Positions 5,501 to 18,410 of a DNA stretch of 64,000 bases are shown one piece after another (positions within the stretch are counted from its first letter, which is position 1; each line of letters opens with the position of its first letter). This DNA is from Candidatus Heimdallarchaeota archaeon. Lineage in GTDB: Archaea; Asgardarchaeota; Heimdallarchaeia; Heimdallarchaeales; Heimdallarchaeaceae. Under the pieces are notes generated by a model, which worked only from the letters and a program-made list of their open reading frames with translations, did no database searches and was not told the DNA's origin. The position numbers and the translations under genes are program-made. The stretch is from the NCBI GenBank assembly GCA_030603365.1, contig JAUVXV010000016.1, forward strand, positions 26,274-90,273. Direction: 5' to 3'.

Positions 5501-8374
5501 TTAGATTTCCAGTATCATACCTTTCTTCTTATTATAGATTTTAATTCCAGCTGTTATTACTCCTAGAAGTACGCTTGTACTTGCTACCACAGGAATAATT
5601 AAATTCGTTATAGAATTTGCTTGATTATTTTTGTTTCCTACCAAATCTAAAATGAGACTGCTGCCCTGTACTATATCTAAATTTGTAAAATACACATAAA
5701 GATCATTTACTTCTAAACTGTAAAACTCGGTAACATCATTTTGATTATTTGTTACAAGCTTCCATTCATATTTTGAAGTAGCATAACTTTCATTTAACTG
5801 GTATAAAACTGATAAATTTGAGTATCCTTTTGTCTCTGTGCTTATTATAAAGTGGATTGTTATGCTATCTTCGTTTTCTTCATTAGTAGCTTCAAAATTA
5901 GGTCCATTTGTCATGATAACTAATTTGTGATCATTCGTTTCTTCACTTGCTTGTATCTGCCAATAAAAGGCATTTGCATCCCAATTCACAGGAATTCTTA
6001 AAGCTTGGGTTTCAATATACGCATCTAGTATAGGAACCATTTCCTCTTCTATCATGAATGTCCATCTATCGTGGGTTAAAGAATAGTTGATATCATAAGT
6101 TAGGGTTATATTTGTGGCAACAAGAACATCCTCGGCACTTCTTTCTGCTTCAACCAACGTATTTTCAAATTCTATTTCAAAAGTCCTAGTAGCTACAATC
6201 TGAGAAACCTTGAATATTGTACAAGTAACATTTACAAGTAAAAGGTCTAAAGGTAGCTCAGCTATATAGATGAATAGACCATTTGCTTCAGTTATCCCTG
6301 TATATTGGTCGTTATGATTGATCTCTATACTAATTGGAGCATACCCCACGGGTAATCCGCTAGAGGAGATGTTGAAATTCAAAATATATTCAGATGGATT
6401 ATCTGATAATTCATGCTGTAGATCAATAAGAATCTCACTTTCATAGATAGTGATGTTGACGTATTTAGTTATGGTTGAATGGGTTTGTGATTCCGCTTGA
6501 ATTTTCACAATATATTCATTTTGCGTCAAATAAAAGGATGATATTAAAATTATATACTCTTCATCTTGTTTAATAGCTTGAATTATCTCCCCATCTATAT
6601 TTGCATAGATTATAGCGTTTTCTATTTCAGAATATTGATCTAAGCTTAAGTAAGACACTCCGAGCTCTTTAATTGCATATTTCGGAATGTCTATTTGTTC
6701 CTCAACAGTCATTGATGCTGGTTTTCTGAGCAGGTTTATTGTACTGTTTCTATAACCTATATAATCCCCATCTAATATTAGAAAAGTTATATCGATATTT
6801 CCATCTGTAATCCATGGTGGAAACGAGTACAGAATATTATTATCAACCATTTCACATGTTGAACCTCCCGTCTCTCTTTTGGTCCAAAATATGTAAATAA
6901 ATGTGCTAGAAACTGGTTCTTGAAATTCAAATGAAGCGTTTAATACTTCAAATATTGTTGTATTCTCATAGTTTACATCTACTATGTGATTTATTACAGT
7001 AAAATCACATTTAATGGTGAAAATTGCTTCCCGAATTGCAAGAGTTAGTATTTTGTATCCGTTGCTTAAATCATCAACAGATATGATATCTGCACCTGTT
7101 GGATTCCCAAATATTACCCACAAGTCTGGATATGTGATGTTTATTTGATCTATTAACGGACTTAAATCTAAAATATTAATTGAATACAAAAGCGTTGACA
7201 CATTATAGAATAGAATCTGTTTTTCATATGCTATCTCAACTGTTCCAGATGATCTTACTGTAAAATTTCCTTCTATCGAATTATTTGAATTATATGTCCA
7301 TATAATATTGTATTCATATGGTGCATCATCTTCAAATAGAATGACTGCTTCAATAGAACCAGTTCCAGGACCTGTAGAACTTATCTGTATGTCATTAATT
7401 CTTAAGTCAATATCCGAAGGTGTTACAGACGTTTTGACTTGAAATTCATCAATTAAAACTGTACATTCCGATATTTCAGGTGAAATCACATATATACCAA
7501 AAGACTTCATCATAGTTGGTATAAATGGATCACCCTCTGTAAATAGATCTGAAATAGATAGGGAATAATGATTCCATTGATCATTCCAGCTACTGTTCTG
7601 AAGAAGTCTATACACAATGAAGGGAGATGTTGTGTTGTCACCAATTGAAGGAGGATCTATATTTGTATGGTGCCAATGAATTATCATTATTCTACATGTA
7701 TCAAAAACGAAATCAAAAATCAATGAAGAGTTTACAACATTTTGCAAACTTGAATTTGATACAAGAAAATAGCTGTAGGATATCTTTGTATCTGTATTAT
7801 ACAAAGGTAAATCTTTCTGGTATAATGCGTATGTTATAGATTCCATATTGTAAGAATAGAATTTCCATGCATAATTCCCTTCTAAACTATCTGTTTCTTC
7901 TATTCGTTCCAAACCAAGACCTACATTAGTTGCATCCTCTGCATAAAATTTTGATTGTTCTTCAGCACCAGGGTTTTGTATATACTGTGACTCTAAGTTA
8001 GTTACATTGCCTTCAATTGAATATTCTCCATTTCCAGGAAGAGTAATGCTTGAATTATATTCTCCAATAATGCCATTAGTGTTTTCCCCCACATAATTTC
8101 CAGTTACATTAACCTCGGGATTAAAAGCATTCAATGTTTCTTCTAATGTTTCTTCTTCTCCTAAAGCTTCTAAACTTAATCTGTTCTCCTCTGTATTCGT
8201 TTTTTCTTTGGTAAAATCCCCACTAGCATCTAGACTTTTTAATCCTTCTTTCCCACTCTCTATGTACCCTTGTTGGTCTACATAGGCGTTTTCTCCATTA
8301 AAAGTAATTGGGGCCTCTAATACTAGCACCAAATAAAACAGTAAAACTGTTGCAATTATCTTCCTGTATTTCAT
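5501..8374 (-). CDS. Large cell-surface glycoprotein (signal peptide, beta-rich domains, C-terminal TM anchor)
   Basis: N-terminal signal peptide, many N-x-S/T sequons, acidic Ile/Thr/Ser-rich composition, C-terminal TM followed by KKKGMILEI. Confidence 0.75.
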   Translation of the reverse strand: MKYRKIIATVLLFYLVLVLEAPITFNGENAYVDQQGYIESGKEGLKSLDASGDFTKEKTNTEENRLSLEALGEEETLEETLNAFNPEVNVTGNYVGENTNGIIGEYNSSITLPGNGEYSIEGNVTNLESQYIQNPGAEEQSKFYAEDATNVGLGLERIEETDSLEGNYAWKFYSYNMESITYALYQKDLPLYNTDTKISYSYFLVSNSSLQNVVNSSLIFDFVFDTCRIMIIHWHHTNIDPPSIGDNTTSPFIVYRLLQNSSWNDQWNHYSLSISDLFTEGDPFIPTMMKSFGIYVISPEISECTVLIDEFQVKTSVTPSDIDLRINDIQISSTGPGTGSIEAVILFEDDAPYEYNIIWTYNSNNSIEGNFTVRSSGTVEIAYEKQILFYNVSTLLYSINILDLSPLIDQINITYPDLWVIFGNPTGADIISVDDLSNGYKILTLAIREAIFTIKCDFTVINHIVDVNYENTTIFEVLNASFEFQEPVSSTFIYIFWTKRETGGSTCEMVDNNILYSFPPWITDGNIDITFLILDGDYIGYRNSTINLLRKPASMTVEEQIDIPKYAIKELGVSYLSLDQYSEIENAIIYANIDGEIIQAIKQDEEYIILISSFYLTQNEYIVKIQAESQTHSTITKYVNITIYESEILIDLQHELSDNPSEYILNFNISSSGLPVGYAPISIEINHNDQYTGITEANGLFIYIAELPLDLLLVNVTCTIFKVSQIVATRTFEIEFENTLVEAERSAEDVLVATNITLTYDINYSLTHDRWTFMIEEEMVPILDAYIETQALRIPVNWDANAFYWQIQASEETNDHKLVIMTNGPNFEATNEENEDSITIHFIISTETKGYSNLSVLYQLNESYATSKYEWKLVTNNQNDVTEFYSLEVNDLYVYFTNLDIVQGSSLILDLVGNKNNQANSITNLIIPVVASTSVLLGVITAGIKIYNKKKGMILEI

Positions 8375-8684
8375 CCTATTATCTTATGTAAACTATATCT
8401 TAAAAACAGCACAATTTTTTCGAGTAGATTTTTGTTGTGTTAGTTAACAATATAAAAACACTATCTATAGAATCAAACTCTAAGGCTTAGCAATTCGCAG
8501 TAATCTTCTAATCTTTTTCATGAAAAATGAAAAATTAATACTTTCAGTGAACAGCCCCTTCTTTCTATTCTAGTCTACTGAAATTAGTGATAAGAATATT
8601 AGATTTTATCTGTACTCAGTATTAGCTCTGTTTGAATCTTAAAAATTCTCAATAGTTTCGATATGGTTATTTTTATTGAGTAAA

Positions 8685-9716
8685 ATGGAAAGTTGCTTGT
8701 GTGATGAATGTGGATCTCGAATAGTTGAAGAGAACGGGGAGAATGTATGTCAAAAATGTGGTCTTGTACACGATCCTATACTTGAATCTTCATCTTTTCA
8801 ATTAGGTTCAGTGAAAAATGGTGTATCTAGAAAAAACCAACAATATACTTCAATAAATAACAATTTAACTGTTGTAAGTTCTTTAGGTTCATCTATTGGT
8901 TCAGTAGAAGAATACATGTTTAGGGATGCAAATGGGTCTCTTTTAGATGAAACTATGCAATATAAGTTTCGAAAATTTAAAACTTACTATCACATCCCTG
9001 GAGCTATTAAAGGAAAGGAAACTGATTTTAGAACTTTAAAGATTTTAAATGAGGTCTTTTCACGACTTCAAGTTCCAAACAAAATACGAGAAAGGACCCT
9101 CTTTCTCTATCATCAATATAAATCGGAACACAAAAAGAAGATAACAAATCATGTTCTGCTTTCAGCTATGGCACTATTTCTAAGCATACGTGAATCAGGG
9201 ACAAATTGTCCTCTTACACTAAAGGAAATAGTAAATACCTACAGGGAGCTAGGTCATAGAGTTCTTGGAAAAAATCTACTAAGTCTTATGCAAGATCTGA
9301 ATATCAAACCAACTTCAAGTGGGGTTAGAAGAAGTGAAGAATATGTTTTCAGAATATGTTCTCTGATTTGCCGTTGTCCAATAATAAAGGAAAGAATTGA
9401 GAAGAAGTATTCCATAGATGTTTATGTTTATGAGAAAATGCTTCAACTTCTTTGTTTGAAGATACTTGAGCGTATACCATATCCTGATCGCGGAGGAAGA
9501 AGACCCTATCCTCTTTCAGCAGCTTCTGCTTATGTAGCTGATAAGCTCTTATCAAGAAAGATAAAACACTCTTCTGCTCTAACACAAAAACTTGTAGCTC
9601 AATCAGCAAACGTTGCAGAGTTTACAATAAGAGATCATGCTGAGTTTATGTTTTCTTATGATTATGAGAATATTATTAATGATATCAGTGAAAGATTATC
9701 TTCAAGTTTTGTTTAG
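8685..9716 (+). CDS. Divergent TFB/TFIIB-family paralog
   Basis: N-terminal Zn ribbon CDEC...CQKC, two cyclin-fold repeats, C-terminal TQKLVAQSANVAEFTIR HTH. Lacks the canonical B-reader EWR motif. Confidence 0.8.
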   Translation: MESCLCDECGSRIVEENGENVCQKCGLVHDPILESSSFQLGSVKNGVSRKNQQYTSINNNLTVVSSLGSSIGSVEEYMFRDANGSLLDETMQYKFRKFKTYYHIPGAIKGKETDFRTLKILNEVFSRLQVPNKIRERTLFLYHQYKSEHKKKITNHVLLSAMALFLSIRESGTNCPLTLKEIVNTYRELGHRVLGKNLLSLMQDLNIKPTSSGVRRSEEYVFRICSLICRCPIIKERIEKKYSIDVYVYEKMLQLLCLKILERIPYPDRGGRRPYPLSAASAYVADKLLSRKIKHSSALTQKLVAQSANVAEFTIRDHAEFMFSYDYENIINDISERLSSSFV

Positions 9717-9751: not shown

Positions 9752-10369
9752 CTAAAAGGGAATAACCCCAACTAGAAAGAATCTAACTCCTATAACTATA
9801 ACAACATGCAGAACAATTACGATAATTAACCGAATTTTAATGCTTTTTTCATTTGACATCTTGAGAAGGTAGTAATTATTTAGTAAATTTATCAAAAGAA
9901 AAGAAACTGATAAGTAAGAGAGAATAGAAAGAGACGTGGTAAACTCTCCTGTATTAATGAATTCGTACAGATTTGAGAAAATGGGTGAAAAACCTGCAAT
10001 TAATGCAATAACAACTAATGTTACAAAACGTATTATCTTGATTCTACGTCTATGTACCTTTAAAGTAGTTTCTTTTTCTTTAAGAGTTTCTTCTCTTATC
10101 CTAATTAGTTTTGATGTTATCATTAATCGTTCTAAAATATCCGTTTCATCCGCATTATCAATAGAAGTGAAGAGATTTGTCAATGCAGGATATTTGAAAT
10201 CAATGGAAGATACAATATCTGTAAGTTCTTCTCCTAATTGCAATCTTGCAAGAATATCTTCTGGAACACCTTCAGTCAAGAAAAAAGCTCTTTCAAGATT
10301 TTCACCACCTTCCAGACGAAATGCAATATTACTTAGAAAATCAAATTCTGTACAATTTAGTTTACTCAT
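9752..10369 (-). CDS. TadC/ArlJ-like membrane platform protein
   Basis: AFRLEGGENLERAF-type cytoplasmic helical domain followed by three TM helices. Translationally coupled behind the TadA-like ATPase operon. Confidence 0.6.
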   Translation of the reverse strand: MSKLNCTEFDFLSNIAFRLEGGENLERAFFLTEGVPEDILARLQLGEELTDIVSSIDFKYPALTNLFTSIDNADETDILERLMITSKLIRIREETLKEKETTLKVHRRRIKIIRFVTLVVIALIAGFSPIFSNLYEFINTGEFTTSLSILSYLSVSFLLINLLNNYYLLKMSNEKSIKIRLIIVIVLHVVIVIGVRFFLVGVIPF

Positions 10370-10370
10370 T

Positions 10371-11183
10371 TTAATCACATGATTCCCTATTTTGCATAAA
10401 ACGAAGTACTAGTGTTCCAAATATTGCATAAAGTAGAGGAAATACGAATATCGTTAATGAATCTGATGGCAAAAGAAATGACAAAACCATGCTTAAGACT
10501 AATGGTAATAAACATGAAATTGCAATAAAAATCACAATATTGTCTTCAATGAGTTTTATTCCATTTCTAACTCTTAATAGAAAATCAGGGTCAGAATCAA
10601 TAAAGGAGTTCTCAGTTTTAATATTCTGAAATGCATTTTCATACTTTTTTGTTTGAAAGATTTTCCCGCTTTCCTGAATAATCTCATCTTCATCCACTCC
10701 CAAATTAAAGTTATAGATCATTTCTTGGAAATACTTCTTGTAATCTTCATCTATACCACTTTTGGATAACAATAATTCTATCGAATAAGGAAAGGATTGT
10801 GTAGATGTCATATTTATTGAAAGAGAATTTATGATTATAAAGGCTGACTCATCAAATTTTTGATGCCTTTCAAGAATTTTTGACCTAATATAATCACCAA
10901 ACACAATTAGAAATGCAATGCTAGAAATAGCACTTATAACCAGTGCTAATATTATGTTTAATTGTGTTATAAAGTAAGTAATAATTGCTATTACTATGAG
11001 AACGATAAGGGTTAAATTCCCTATTACTCTAATGCTAGTGTAATCTTTTTCCAATATAAAAAATCTTGATGAATTTCTTATTTTTCCTAAAACAGCTCTA
11101 TAGAGTATCTTCTTAGGAATGATACTTACATCCATTATTCTTGATCTAGTAGTTTTTTTAGTTAAACCAGTTCCCATTCTCAT
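10371..11183 (-). CDS. TadB/ArlJ-like membrane platform protein
   Basis: Layout of 2 TM, cytoplasmic helical domain (SLSINMTSTQSFPYSI), then 2 TM. Directly downstream of the secretion ATPase. Confidence 0.6.
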   Translation of the reverse strand: MRMGTGLTKKTTRSRIMDVSIIPKKILYRAVLGKIRNSSRFFILEKDYTSIRVIGNLTLIVLIVIAIITYFITQLNIILALVISAISSIAFLIVFGDYIRSKILERHQKFDESAFIIINSLSINMTSTQSFPYSIELLLSKSGIDEDYKKYFQEMIYNFNLGVDEDEIIQESGKIFQTKKYENAFQNIKTENSFIDSDPDFLLRVRNGIKLIEDNIVIFIAISCLLPLVLSMVLSFLLPSDSLTIFVFPLLYAIFGTLVLRFMQNRESCD

Positions 11184-11220
11184 TCACCTATAAACAAGAG
11201 TAATCTCTCTTACCATTTTT

Positions 11221-12612
11221 TTATCTCCAAGTTTCCTCGTATTCTTTGTTCAACATTTTGCTTCTTTTGATGATTTCAGTTAGTTCAGTACTCAAAAATG
11301 ATTTTTCTTTTATACGTTCCAATGTTTGTTCTTCATTCATTGTATCGTCATAAATTTTTCTTAGAAAACCATAATTACTAATTTTATCGTTATCAGGGTT
11401 GACTTCATAAACATCCACTACTTTTCTGACGAACGTACTTTGGGTAATTTCTCTTTTCATTACAACTATGATATTTAATGATAAGAAATCTGTTCTTGCA
11501 ATTTTATGGAGATTTTCCCATCTTCTTAATATCTTCTCAACAGAATCAGAGTGTGCTGTTTGAATCCCCTTTAAACCAGCGTTTAGTGCTTCAAACATCG
11601 CTTGAGTGTGCTCCCTTGATTGAATCTCTCCAAGATATATCCAATCTGGTGATCTGTGAAGCAATTTTAGAATTTCTGTTGTCTTTGTGTGGACAGATTT
11701 ATTAGATTCAAAAGAATCTACTTGGATTGAAAGTTGTTTATAACCCATAGAGGATTGATTTATTGACTCTATTGCATCCTCTATAGCAATTTTTCTCCAA
11801 TGTTTTGGTGTATACAAATCTAACGCATTTGCCAAAGTTGTTTTTCCAGCATTTGGTTCTCCAATAATTGTTATATTCAATCTTTTCTGAATTGCCTCAA
11901 TTAAGAAGGATGCAACATATGAAGGTAGAGTATCTAGGTTGATTAAATCAACTAATGTTAAGGGATTTCTTTTAAGCTTCCTTATATTAAATGTAGGACC
12001 ATTAGGTGATAAAGGTGGAAAATCCATTGAAATACGAGAATGAAATAATCTTGTCTGAAACTCAACTTTTAATGATGGTTTCTTTGTTGAAATAGTAATT
12101 GGGTGCTCTAATTTGATTCTTGTTAATAGAGCTTTTAGTTCCTCTTCCTCTAGTACAACTACAGTGTTACACCTACCGAAAGACTGATGATCCAAATAAA
12201 TGGGGGAATCCTTCTGATCCAAGTAAATTTCATTTACATTATGATCTATTAAGAAAGGAATAATCTTATCGATCTTGATTAAACGGTAAATAAACAATTC
12301 AGCGAAGATTTCAGGATCGATCTTTAGATTATCTATCTCGAGAATTTTCCACATGCAAATTGATTTTACAGTATCTACTAGTTCGTCAAATTTCAAGATT
12401 TCTTTTCCTAGACGATTTTGGCTATTTCGAATCAAAGCGGATAGTTCAGCAAAAAGCAAAGGTTCTTGGTTAAAATCTATCAGAGGTAACGCTTTATAAA
12501 ATAGAACTTCATCTTCTTCAATTAGTTTTATTTTAAAACCTCTAATTATGTATTCTTTCTCTATTTCATTTAGTTTATGTTTTTCTTCCTGTAAACAGTT
12601 ACTACTAGTCAT
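11221..12612 (-). CDS. TadA/CpaF/VirB11-family pilus assembly ATPase
   Basis: Walker A GEPNAGKT, Asp box IEDAIE, Walker B PDWIYLGEI, His box QTAH, and TFNIRK motif. Confidence 0.9.
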   Translation of the reverse strand: MTSSNCLQEEKHKLNEIEKEYIIRGFKIKLIEEDEVLFYKALPLIDFNQEPLLFAELSALIRNSQNRLGKEILKFDELVDTVKSICMWKILEIDNLKIDPEIFAELFIYRLIKIDKIIPFLIDHNVNEIYLDQKDSPIYLDHQSFGRCNTVVVLEEEELKALLTRIKLEHPITISTKKPSLKVEFQTRLFHSRISMDFPPLSPNGPTFNIRKLKRNPLTLVDLINLDTLPSYVASFLIEAIQKRLNITIIGEPNAGKTTLANALDLYTPKHWRKIAIEDAIESINQSSMGYKQLSIQVDSFESNKSVHTKTTEILKLLHRSPDWIYLGEIQSREHTQAMFEALNAGLKGIQTAHSDSVEKILRRWENLHKIARTDFLSLNIIVVMKREITQSTFVRKVVDVYEVNPDNDKISNYGFLRKIYDDTMNEEQTLERIKEKSFLSTELTEIIKRSKMLNKEYEETWR

Positions 12613-14809: not shown

Positions 14810-15109
14810 TCAGTTTTCCTCCCATATTTTGAAAAGTTGTTTCAAAGAATGAGCTAGAATATTACTGTCCTGAAATTGATAGATTAGTATTCTACCAAAC
14901 CTCTTTTCTTTTAGTAAACCTACTCTAGTAAGGAATTTTAAGTGCTCTTTAACAGCGGAATGATTTAGATTAATACTTCTTGAAATAGCAGACACATTAA
15001 GTTCTCCGAGTCCTGCTAGCAGTTTTAATATTCTCACTCTACCTTTAGACGAGAAAACATCTTCCAGAGCTATTTTGGGAAGAGTTTCAGTTTCGGTTTT
15101 ATTTGTCAT
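14810..15109 (-). CDS. ArsR-like winged-helix protein downstream of cdc6
   Basis: VFSSKGRVRILKLL...LNVSAISRSINLNHSAVKEHLKFL...EKRFGR wHTH pattern. Starts 14 nt after the cdc6 stop. Confidence 0.85.
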   Translation of the reverse strand: MTNKTETETLPKIALEDVFSSKGRVRILKLLAGLGELNVSAISRSINLNHSAVKEHLKFLTRVGLLKEKRFGRILIYQFQDSNILAHSLKQLFKIWEEN

Positions 15110-15123
15110 TTTTTTGGTCTCCT

Positions 15124-16347
15124 CTATTTCTCAGCATACTCAACTGTTTTCTTCTGGTTCTCAATTGCTTTTACTAAAAACAGTTCAATGTTTTCCACAG
15201 ATATATCTGGTATGCTAATTAGTGTTGTTTTACCTCTCATACCCTCACCTGAGATTTTTGTGCTAATGATATCCTGTTTGGAAAGCTCTTTTAGATAAGA
15301 CCAAACCTGAGTATGTTTTCTCGGTTCTTCCTTATACTCTTCACACACCAATCTATAGGCACCTATAGAATCATTTGTGGAGATATAGGCATTTTTTGTA
15401 TGCTTTAGTTTTCTGATTATAGCAAGAAGAATTAACTTCTGATGAAGAGTTAAAGTTAGAATAATTTCTCTTCGAATTTCAGGGTGAATTAAGGCTTTTG
15501 CTTTTCTTACATGATCGGGATAAACAATAGGAGAACTCTCATCATCGGCACATTGTCCAGCCCCCCAAAGAAGTTCTATCGCATATCTAGCATCACCAGA
15601 CCTACTTGAAATGTCTGCAATTAATTCAGTTGTATCTTCTGTTATTGTGCCATCATAGAATGCTAGTTCTGCACGTGATTTTATAATGTCCTTCAAATCA
15701 TCTTCTGCATATCTATCTAACGATATGTGGTTTGATTGAAAACTACTTTGAGTACTTGCGTCCATTTGATAAATGAAATTAAGATTTCTTGCTACAAAAA
15801 TATAAGACATCCACTGTTTTGAAGTCATCTCACTGATTCTAAGCAAGGTGTAAAGAAAGTCAGTTCCAACTCTTGAAATTAAGTAATCCACTTCATCCAA
15901 AATCAGTAATACTTTTGGAGAATAAAAATCAAGTAATCTGATTAGAAGTGATTGTAATTCTTCAAATGAATAACCTCGTGGTGGTATAGCTTTGTTCAAT
16001 TTACGGGCAAGAGTGCTAACAATCAAATATGGGCTCTTGTAAATGCGGCAGTTAATATATACTAAAAGAAAATTATTGGTTTTATCGATATTTTCTAAAA
16101 GTTGACCAAATCGTTTTGCTAAAGTTGTTTTACCAGATCCAGTAGGACCAGTTATACAGACTTTTTTCAAAGGTCCATCTTGGCTGTCAAAAATTGTTTT
16201 GAAACATTTAGCCAGAGTTCTAAGCTCTTCCTCCCTATGTGGAAGATAAGGTGGAATATACGTCACAGAAAGACAACCAATGTCTTTAAACACAGTTGGC
16301 TTCTTAATTAGTGAGTTGAAATACTCTTCATCTGAAGTATGCATCAT
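15124..16347 (-). CDS. cdc6: Orc1/Cdc6 replication initiator
   Basis: YIPPYLPHREEE, Walker A GPTGSGKT, YINC, LDEVD, GDAR and a C-terminal winged helix. Confidence 0.96.
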   Translation of the reverse strand: MMHTSDEEYFNSLIKKPTVFKDIGCLSVTYIPPYLPHREEELRTLAKCFKTIFDSQDGPLKKVCITGPTGSGKTTLAKRFGQLLENIDKTNNFLLVYINCRIYKSPYLIVSTLARKLNKAIPPRGYSFEELQSLLIRLLDFYSPKVLLILDEVDYLISRVGTDFLYTLLRISEMTSKQWMSYIFVARNLNFIYQMDASTQSSFQSNHISLDRYAEDDLKDIIKSRAELAFYDGTITEDTTELIADISSRSGDARYAIELLWGAGQCADDESSPIVYPDHVRKAKALIHPEIRREIILTLTLHQKLILLAIIRKLKHTKNAYISTNDSIGAYRLVCEEYKEEPRKHTQVWSYLKELSKQDIISTKISGEGMRGKTTLISIPDISVENIELFLVKAIENQKKTVEYAEK

Positions 16348-17092: not shown

Positions 17093-17177
17093 GCGGAGAT
17101 TGCCGAGTGGTCAAAGGCGCTAGAATGAGGATCTAGTCCTTAGTGGTCCGGGAGTTCGAATCTCCCTCTCCGCACCA
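17093..17177 (+). tRNA. tRNA-Leu(GAG)
   Basis: 85 nt with long variable arm, anticodon arm CTAGA-ATGAGGA-TCTAG, encoded CCA. Confidence 0.96.
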
Positions 17178-17186
17178 AATTTTGCT

Positions 17187-17363
17187 TCAGCCAAATAAAT
17201 TATCTATAGATGTTGTTGACCAATCTATAAGACTAAAAATAACTCCAAAGATAATCGCGAAGATTAAGATTGCAATACCAATGAGTAAAATTTCCTCTAG
17301 TATGGGTGATCCTCTCTTCTTCTTGAAGAGTTTGAGCTCTTTAAATAATAGTAACCTCAACAT
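17187..17363 (-). CDS. Flp-like type IV prepilin (class III signal peptide)
   Basis: Below the ORF-track cutoff. MLRLLLFKELKLFKKKRG|SPILEEILLIGIAILIFAIIFGVIFSLIDWSTTSIDNLFG*: basic leader ending KRG, Glu at +5, hydrophobic helix, 40-aa mature protein. TTAAATA box upstream. Confidence 0.85.
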   Translation of the reverse strand: MLRLLLFKELKLFKKKRGSPILEEILLIGIAILIFAIIFGVIFSLIDWSTTSIDNLFG

Positions 17364-17576
17364 AATTCTCAGCTATTATACTAATGTTGATATTTAAGCA
17401 CCACAAATAGAGATTACTGTATTCTCCGCTTCCAAGTCTTATTTTCAAATAGTGGACAGCCTGTGCTTAAGTGATTACAACCAACCCAAAATACTCTATT
17501 TAAAAAACTTGGATATGGAAAACCTTTTTTACTATCATAAGGGGGTGCGATATAGAATCCTTTGCCGGGTGTAACT

Positions 17577-18410
17577 ATGGATATAGAGCTTATTGAACTG
17601 TTTCCTAATTCGATAAAATTCATTTTATCAGATGTATCTTTAGCTTTTGCTAATGCAATAAGAAGGATAGGTTTAGCTGAAGTCTCATCCTTAGTTATAG
17701 AGGACGTTTATGTTCTAAAAAATACTTCTCCACTTTTTGATGAGTTTATCGCACATCGGCTGGGATTAATACCATTAAAATATGATATCGATGCTCTTGA
17801 TTTAAATTTCAAGGATGAATGTGATTGTGGTGGAATTGGTTGCAACATGTGTACTGTAACCTTGACAATTTCTAAGGAAACCGACAATCAAACTACCACA
17901 GTAATCTATAGTTCTGATCTGATTTCGTCACAGAAAGGAGTTGAACCAATTAGTTCAACAATCCCCATTGTAAAATTAGGACCAAATCAAACATTGGAAC
18001 TTGAATGTATGGCACAATTAGGCAAAGGAAAAGAACACGCAAAGTGGCAACCTGTTTCAGCTATGGGATACCAAATTTTTCCAATTCCCAAAATAAATAA
18101 GGATAAATGTACAAACTGCCTTATTTGCATAGAAGCTTGCTATAGGGGCGTTTTTCAAAAATCTGGTGAAAATGTTCAAGTAGCTAATCCTCTAAACTGC
18201 ACTTTGTGTGATTATTGTTTAGATTTGTGTGAACCAGGAGCAATTACAATTAACAATGACCCTAGTAAGGTTATATTCTCCTTTGAAACAAATGGTGGAA
18301 TAAATCCAGCTACTGTTTTAACAAAATCAGGTGAATTACTTATCTCCAAAATCGACGAATTCAAAAAGACTTTGGAATCAACAGTTATTGAAAAGGAAAA
18401 AGAATCTTAA
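17577..18410 (+). CDS. rpoD: RNA polymerase subunit D (Rpo3) with ferredoxin-like insert
   Basis: ANAIRRI, NTSPLFDEFIAHRLGLIP, GKGKEHAKWQP and two CxxCxxCxxxC motifs. Confidence 0.97.
   Translation: MDIELIELFPNSIKFILSDVSLAFANAIRRIGLAEVSSLVIEDVYVLKNTSPLFDEFIAHRLGLIPLKYDIDALDLNFKDECDCGGIGCNMCTVTLTISKETDNQTTTVIYSSDLISSQKGVEPISSTIPIVKLGPNQTLELECMAQLGKGKEHAKWQPVSAMGYQIFPIPKINKDKCTNCLICIEACYRGVFQKSGENVQVANPLNCTLCDYCLDLCEPGAITINNDPSKVIFSFETNGGINPATVLTKSGELLISKIDEFKKTLESTVIEKEKES

Follow-up and report, generated by a model that had tools for sequence, protein, structure and literature searches.

A headless pilin-like mini-protein linked to a divergent secretion ATPase and two cryptic platform proteins across Asgard archaea

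A 58-residue open reading frame (ORF) in a Candidatus Heimdallarchaeota genome encodes, with a probability that we put at roughly two in three, a headless type IV pilin-like subunit that is assembled by a nearby secretion ATPase and two platform proteins. The ORF lies in the window, by which we mean the whole 64,000-nucleotide stretch of contig JAUVXV010000016.1 that was analyzed. A compact module comprising the ATPase, two cryptic platform proteins, the 40-residue pilin, and usually a paralogue of transcription factor B (TFB) is present in approximately 80% of 400 Asgard genomes. In the mechanism that we propose, the prepilin would insert in the membrane with its basic 18-residue leader on the cytoplasmic side, the single A24 (FlaK/PibD-type) peptidase of the genome would cut after Gly18 to leave a 40-residue hydrophobic helix with Glu at +5, and the ATPase together with the GspF-like platform proteins would extract this helix from the membrane and polymerize it. 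Such assembly would yield a thin Flp/Epd-style filament or else a short pseudopilus. We infer the cleavage, the polymerization, the acting peptidase, and the biological role (adhesion or cell-cell contact), and we conclude that Asgard archaea probably build a thin Flp/Epd-style surface filament. We know of no report of such a pilus from cultured Asgard archaea. The features of the window and of the related loci are collected in Table 1.

Table 1. Coordinates of the mini-prepilin gene, its neighbors, and related loci. Plain numbers are window positions; L, loci of other genomes; C, other contigs of the same genome.
Feature	Location	Strand	Remarks
Mini-prepilin gene	17187..17363	-	58 aa; ATG at 17363, stop at 17187-17189
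Predicted leader of mini-prepilin	17310-17363	-	Residues 1-18
Predicted mature 40-aa helix of mini-prepilin	17190-17309	-	
Antisense ORF	17143-17397	+	Sole longer ORF over the mini-prepilin gene; also crosses the tRNA gene
TTAAATA, TATA-box-like element	17391..17397	-	~31 nt upstream of the mini-prepilin ATG; sequence reading
tRNA-Leu(GAG)	17093..17177	+	Convergent with the mini-prepilin gene, 10 nt from its stop; ARAGORN
RNA polymerase subunit D gene	17562-18410		Divergent from the mini-prepilin gene; RNA_pol_A_bac, RNA_pol_L, and Fer4 domains
Divergent T4F-type secretion ATPase, predicted assembly motor	11221..12612	-	463 aa; Pfam T2SSE 67.6 bits
Platform protein 1, cryptic GspF/TadB-like membrane protein	10371..11183	-	270 aa
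Platform protein 2, cryptic GspF/TadC-like membrane protein	9752..10378	-	208 aa; 8-nt overlap with platform protein 1
Divergent TFB/TFIIB paralogue	8676..9716	+	Travels with the ATPase cluster; zinc ribbon and cyclin folds
TFB paralogue, other copies	L049:6776-7834; L068:10513-11523; L069:2978-3994; L073:10586-11563		
tRNA genes flanking other mini-pilin genes	L050:10296-10380; L055:8838-8922; L049:6134-6211; L056:10158-10235; L028:1206-1279		
Cdc6/Orc1 and wHTH pair	14810-16347	-	
Cdc6/Orc1 and wHTH pair, other copies	L071:15401-17267; L073:637-2147; L074:3052-4613		
~950-970-aa protein	5501-8374	-	
~950-970-aa protein, other copies	L049:11857-14730; L050:2423-5341; L055:983-3877; L056:1578-4424		
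130-155-aa protein	L069:4233-4649	-	
130-155-aa protein	L073:9957-10352	+	
130-155-aa protein	L074:7645-8109	+	
ParA/MinD-like ATPase	L073:9223-9888	-	221 aa
A24 peptidase gene	C13:76654-77472		
SecE gene	C14:88924-89082		
Canonical archaeal type IV pilus locus	C17:139157-147511		Window's genome (G000), outside the window

The motif KKKRG↓SPILEE (the arrow marks the predicted cleavage site), read directly in the sequence, divides the protein into a leader of 18 residues and a mature part of 40 with Glu at +5, and the overall layout is a basic leader followed by SPILEE, approximately 25 hydrophobic residues, and a 12-residue tail. The preliminary description of this DNA had singled out the ORF for its class-III-type site, Glu +5, and short mature part, and all three are confirmed. 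The agreement is far beyond what chance would produce. The frame is open, with 56-68 codons and no stops, in 24 of 24 sampled genomes of the genus. Over a 40-codon core compared among 20 orthologues plus paralogues, the differences at codon positions 1, 2, and 3 numbered 1404, 390, and 3983, respectively, dN/dS was 0.064, and two of the three antisense frames always held stops. The mini-prepilin ORF is a real gene under strong purifying selection. Long antisense "shadow" ORFs mask the mini-pilin gene because tRNA sequence is translated. The ORF had been described as missing from the ORF track, which is true of the track for this window, whereas several public annotations of metagenome-assembled genomes (MAGs) do call the orthologues, as "hypothetical protein." Near-identical database proteins, all of them named "hypothetical," come from Candidatus Heimdallarchaeota/Heimdallarchaeaceae MAGs, which confirms the earlier guess that the host is an Asgard archaeon. 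The genome carries three mini-pilin paralogues, namely the window copy and two on contig C14 with 92% and 85% identity, and no pilus genes were found in the neighborhoods of the C14 copies.

The position given for the gene, between tRNA-Leu and the RNA polymerase subunit D gene, is correct, as is the distance of 4.6 kb to the end of the ATPase gene (position 12612). The TTAAATA element is a putative promoter, read from the sequence, that would give a very short leader ahead of the ATG. The tRNA-Leu(GAG) gene is a context marker that stands outside the pilus system; it also flanks the mini-pilin orthologue in loci L050 and L055. Mini-pilin genes of Heimdallarchaeia are repeatedly flanked within approximately 50-250 nt by tRNA genes, the tRNA being Leu-GAG in family f1, Glu-CTC in f7, and Cys beside one paralogue.

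The gene and its ATPase are distributed together. Of 400 Asgard genomes, 337 have a mini-pilin homologue, for the most part one copy each; 76 of 85 genera are represented, and within the class 71 of 83 genomes. Orthologues of the ATPase (E ≤ 1e-45) occur in 316 of the 400, usually adjoining the mini-pilin gene. The per-family tallies from the two phylum searches are nearly identical. A search for conserved small ORFs of the G↓SPxxEE type and for their co-occurrence with the ATPase had been proposed as a check on the original idea, and these counts uphold it. The distance between the mini-pilin gene and the orthologous ATPase gene is 0.36-16 kb in most lineages across the phylum: 0.4-0.8 kb in f4, 1.4-1.5 kb in f7, 1.7 kb in two closed f1 genomes, 4-7 kb in the genus of the window, 10-16 kb in f5, and 0.36-2.3 kb in f11, f12, f14, f19, f26, and f27. 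The operon order ATPase, platform 1, platform 2, mini-pilin, with short gaps, is found in genome G094 and in the closed 1.4 Mb genome G303; in both, the mini-pilin gene has the same orientation as the platform 2 gene and begins 36-45 nt downstream of it. Divergent pairs occur in f14 and f19, and in f7 the mini-pilin gene lies upstream of both a TFB-like gene and the ATPase. Among lineages the mini-pilin gene shifts its place with respect to the ATPase but keeps close to it.

Eight genomes of genus g17 have both the mini-pilin and the ATPase and three have neither, the single genome of the neighboring genus g18 lacks both, and genus g25 (four genomes) lacks both while its sister genus g24 has both. 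Because the genes are linked, fragmented assembly of a MAG can make both seem absent; absences that recur within whole genera carry more weight. The claimed link between the mini-pilin and the operon at 9752-12612 is supported by these data, the genes being neighbors in most Asgard lineages, forming an operon in several, and being missing together from two clades. The notion of a dispersed pilus system is upheld as to the ATPase link and needs revision as to its scope, for the arrangement is phylum-wide and not peculiar to this genome.

We considered whether the mini-pilin could instead be a small membrane protein of another kind (a SecE-like subunit or a small hydrophobic toxin, for example) that lies near the ATPase only because a core-gene region near cdc6 is conserved. 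The genes for Cdc6, a winged-helix (wHTH) protein, and the TFB paralogue are likewise found in the mini-pilin/ATPase neighborhood in many lineages, so some of the synteny may stem from the conservation of a core region, and the protein has a weak match to the SecE family (PF00584; 18.8 bits and E 1.6e-3 against a cut-off of 22.7). SecE identity was rejected: the genuine SecE of the genome is encoded on contig C14 and scores 36 bits. An unrelated protein would also have to account for the co-oriented position directly downstream of platform 2 in G094 and G303, for a proximity that survives the lineage-specific rearrangements, and for the joint absences in two clades, and we regard it as very unlikely.

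The same genome harbors a canonical type IV pilus locus of the archaeal kind on contig C17. It contains a 285-aa Pilin_N pilin, a FlaI-like ATPase (422 bits with the FlaI model), two T2SSF genes that Pfam recognizes, and another three class-III proteins, whose sites are of the KKGQ type, for a total of four class-III proteins. This cluster is complete and pilins can be shared between machines, so the mini-pilin might be assembled there. That assignment is highly improbable, given that the C17-type ATPase is on another contig or far from the mini-pilin gene in every genome examined, that G073, G074, G077, and G082 keep the C17-type ATPase while lacking the mini-pilin gene, and that the C17 locus has pilins of its own.

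The putative motor is encoded nearer at hand. With the ATPase of the window as query, matches in the PDB ranked in the order afGspE (2.4e-30), FlaI (5e-19), and CpaF (4.6e-13). The protein scored 103 bits on the NCBIfam FlaI model, far under the 550-bit cut-off, and no NCBIfam equivalog was passed. By sequence comparison it is a divergent archaeal secretion ATPase and not specifically TadA; the label "TadA-like" that it had been given is not sustained, as its similarity to TadA/CpaF does not exceed that to FlaI or afGspE.

The two membrane proteins encoded beside the ATPase have no Pfam (PF00482 included) or NCBIfam match, and hhalign comparison of their alignments with the Pfam-positive T2SSF proteins of the genome gave no significance at Neff ~3. 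The AF2 model of platform protein 2 (pLDDT 86.2) has an N-terminal domain (residues 1-112) whose best match among 48,161 chains was PilC (2whn_B; Z 9.7, rmsd 2.2, 89/103), followed by the 3jc8 PilC model (Z 9.2), EpsF (2vma; Z 8.9), and TcpE (4hhx; Z 8.3). For platform protein 1 (pLDDT 77.8), VIA-align comparison of the central domain (residues 102-212) gave middling matches, with Z values of 6.3-7.1: SpoIIIAB (Z 7.1), the PilC N-domain 2whn (Z 7.0, 95/103), EpsF (Z 6.3), and TcpE (Z 6.3). Its Atlas feature matches fell in T2SSF clusters in 25 of 30 cases, with a best score of 0.94, and its orthologue in G094 matches ArlJ/FlaJ at E 6.2e-7; a Foldseek search of platform protein 1 against the PDB returned helical-bundle noise only. 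Both platform proteins have GspF/PilC-like predicted folds, and an arrangement of two separate platform genes with one T2SSF-type domain each is present by predicted fold, not by Pfam. A single A24 peptidase gene was found in the genome, as a sub-threshold FlaK-like match. Genus g25 keeps the A24 gene while lacking the mini-pilin and the ATPase; the peptidase therefore does not co-vary with the system, and its co-distribution was set aside as uninformative.

To define the family, site statistics were taken over 115 non-redundant mini-pilin members. Position -1 is Gly in 93 and Ala in 14 (Gly/Ala in 107 of 115), position -2 is Arg/Lys in 92, and position -3 is Lys/Arg in 81; position +1 is Ser or Gly, +2 is Pro in 106, +6 is Glu in the window protein and in 106 members and Tyr in 7, and +11 is Gly in 112. 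Glu +5, present in every aligned member, is the sole invariant column of the wide mini-pilin alignment. The leader (median 18 residues) varies between members, whereas the start of the mature part is almost unchanging; mature lengths have a median of 41 residues, compared with 40 for the window protein. An exhaustive profile search of 1.84 billion representatives returned 61 clusters, nearly all with lengths of 46-110 residues.

Formal models fell short of an assignment. Pilin_N (PF07790) scored 20.2 bits on the window protein against a gathering cut-off of 25.2, and in a scan of the genome it matched all three paralogues below threshold at 15-19 bits. Neither Flp_Fap (PF04964) nor Class_IIIsignal matched the window protein or the other two copies in its genome, the Epd pilin family PF04021 gave no match on the mini-pilin genes, and a PDB sequence search with the mini-pilin family profile returned nothing at E ≤ 10. 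Profile comparison went further: hhalign of the mini-pilin profile A1 against the N-terminus of a 139-aa canonical archaeal pilin gave a probability of 90.9% and E 1.2e-6, and the same profile finds the N-termini of canonical pilins of 140-180 and ~1000 residues at E 1e-5 to 1e-6 in related genomes. By these comparisons the mini-pilin has a weak but reproducible homology with the N-terminal part of canonical archaeal pilins.

The seven Tyr+6 members resemble the bacterial Flp motif and reach 26 bits on Flp_Fap, for which the cut-off is 32.2; one of them is named "Flp" by IMG. A contig scan with the Tyr+6 subfamily returned bacterial Flp loci only. An Asgard genome of family f19 has a closely similar Tyr+6 form, with the motif RA↓GSVVEY, beside the orthologous ATPase, and the Tyr+6 variants are therefore considered orthologues and not bacterial contaminants. 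The Flp-likeness that had been proposed holds for size, the missing head, and Glu +5, and does not extend to membership of the Flp family by Pfam.

Counting against the pilin reading, no curated family model is passed by the mini-pilin, and its Ser/Gly at +1 and Pro at +2 set it apart from the genome's canonical pilins, whose site reads RA↓VSP. The tail beyond the helix has only approximately 12 residues, and a protein with so short a tail might stay in the membrane throughout. We weighed the possibility that it is an uncleaved single-pass subunit or regulator of the ATPase-platform complex, a small signal-anchor partner that does not polymerize. Linkage and co-distribution with the ATPase fit any stoichiometric partner equally well, and the atypical +1 and +2 residues, the short extracellular tail, and the failure of the curated pilin models are all in keeping with such a role. 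What a signal anchor does not call for is a [KR][GA] pair ahead of an invariant helix, a variable leader, and Glu at +5, which are the needs of a processed pilin. The homology to pilin N-termini and the multiple paralogues, typical of major pilins (PMC4858521), also speak for processing, and on this balance we hold a non-polymerizing partner to be unlikely, though worth keeping in mind, and favor the headless pilin-like subunit.

Several other genes accompany the module. The TFB paralogue was undetected by the Pfam TFIIB model and scored 51.8 bits, under the cut-off, on the NCBIfam TFIIB subfamily; a profile of eight orthologues matched human TFIIB at 1.9e-12 and Pyrococcus TFB at 4e-6. Three canonical TFBs are encoded elsewhere in the genome. 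The paralogue adjoins the ATPase in f1, f7, f9, f11, f12, f14, f27, and f33 and is 2.9 kb away in f19, and it may be a dedicated transcription factor for the ATPase/mini-pilin locus. A Cdc6/Orc1 gene and a small ArsR-type wHTH gene lie close to the cluster in distant Asgard families, so the whole module may sit in a conserved origin-proximal region. Beside the cluster, Heimdallarchaeia conserve a protein of approximately 950-970 residues; it has a signal-like helix at the N-terminus and a membrane anchor at the C-terminus, matches no Pfam family, and could be a surface protein related to the mini-pilin system. In other Asgard families a neighbor of the ATPase is a 130-155-aa protein whose hydrophobic N-terminal helix follows an acidic residue; this protein may be a minor pilin, and no counterpart was seen in the window. 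The closed 1.4 Mb genome encodes a ParA/MinD-like ATPase just upstream of the T4F ATPase; it recalls TadZ/CpaE and is absent near the operon of the window.

Searches of the literature library used, for the mini-pilin motif or for Asgard Flp pili, found no description of the family. A recent (2026) census reported a rare or scattered occurrence of type IV filament systems among Asgard archaea, with core components that seldom adjoin one another (PMC13705601), and a compact module may therefore have been missed. It was probably missed because three of its parts fall under family-model thresholds and the pilin gene falls under common ORF cut-offs. If the system is confirmed, a near-universal surface or secretion machine would be added to what is known of Asgard archaea, cryo-ET and proteomics would have a concrete target in the new Asgard cultures, and the question of how an archaeal Epd-like ancestor gave rise to bacterial Tad/Flp pili (PMC6668835) would receive a new deep-branching data point. 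A more far-reaching scenario is that the Asgard mini-pilin, ATPase, and split platform form an ancient, vertically kept T4F lineage that is nearer to bacterial Tad/Flp pili than any other living archaeal relative, with the Flp motif still present in one Asgard family, and that under dedicated TFB control it makes thin filaments for the cell-cell contacts of these syntrophic relatives of eukaryotes; taken as a whole we consider this scenario speculative and doubtful.

Among known systems, the canonical Pilin_N (PF07790) pilins share with the mini-pilin a homologous leader and N-terminal helix with an SP(I/V)(L/I)..ILLIG core, and the mini-pilin presumably uses the same single A24 peptidase. It differs from them in having one residue fewer between the Gly/Ala and SP, two Glu in place of small residues, which puts Glu at +5, no globular C-terminal domain, and a score under the Pfam gathering threshold.

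Bacterial Flp/Tad (type IVc) pili, exemplified by Caulobacter PilA and Aggregatibacter Flp1 (Pfam PF04964), have a mature subunit that is a single helix of 40-50 residues. The Asgard system resembles them in its small single-helix mature subunit, Gly at -1, Glu at +5, and a platform split in the TadB/TadC manner, and the f19 orthologues and metagenomic relatives of the mini-pilin read G/A↓GSxVEYGLI, the Flp motif. Unlike Flp, the window protein has Glu and not Tyr at +6, and so lacks the G↓XXXXEY motif, and it has no PF04964 match; unlike Tad loci, the system showed no secretin or TadE/F genes, nor was a TadZ gene seen in the window, and the Asgard ATPase is closer to afGspE and FlaI than to CpaF.

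The EppA-dependent (Epd) pilus of Methanococcus maripaludis, archaeal T4F "system 1," has MMP1685 (arCOG06620) as its major pilin (PMC4858521, PMC6668835, PMC13705601). The preliminary statement that most archaeal pilins carry a globular head is qualified by this system, in which small, headless, stand-alone major pilins with paralogues are already known (PMC4858521, PMC13705601). The Asgard system differs from Epd in that the mini-pilin has neither Gln at +1 nor a PF04021 match, no dedicated EppA-type second peptidase was found in the genome, which has one A24 gene only, the divergence of the platform proteins puts them beyond Pfam T2SSF, the mature pilin has fewer residues (~40), and a TFB paralogue travels with the cluster. 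Common to both are a small headless stand-alone pilin with paralogues and Glu +5, and one ATPase with two separate platform genes of one GspF-type domain each, for the Asgard proteins by predicted fold. A short pilin and two single-domain platform genes are the defining features of the Epd/Tad clade (PMC6668835). The protein would work like an Flp/Epd mini-pilin but fails the formal family models, and we therefore file its system as a putative Asgard-wide variant of the Epd/Tad-type filament system.
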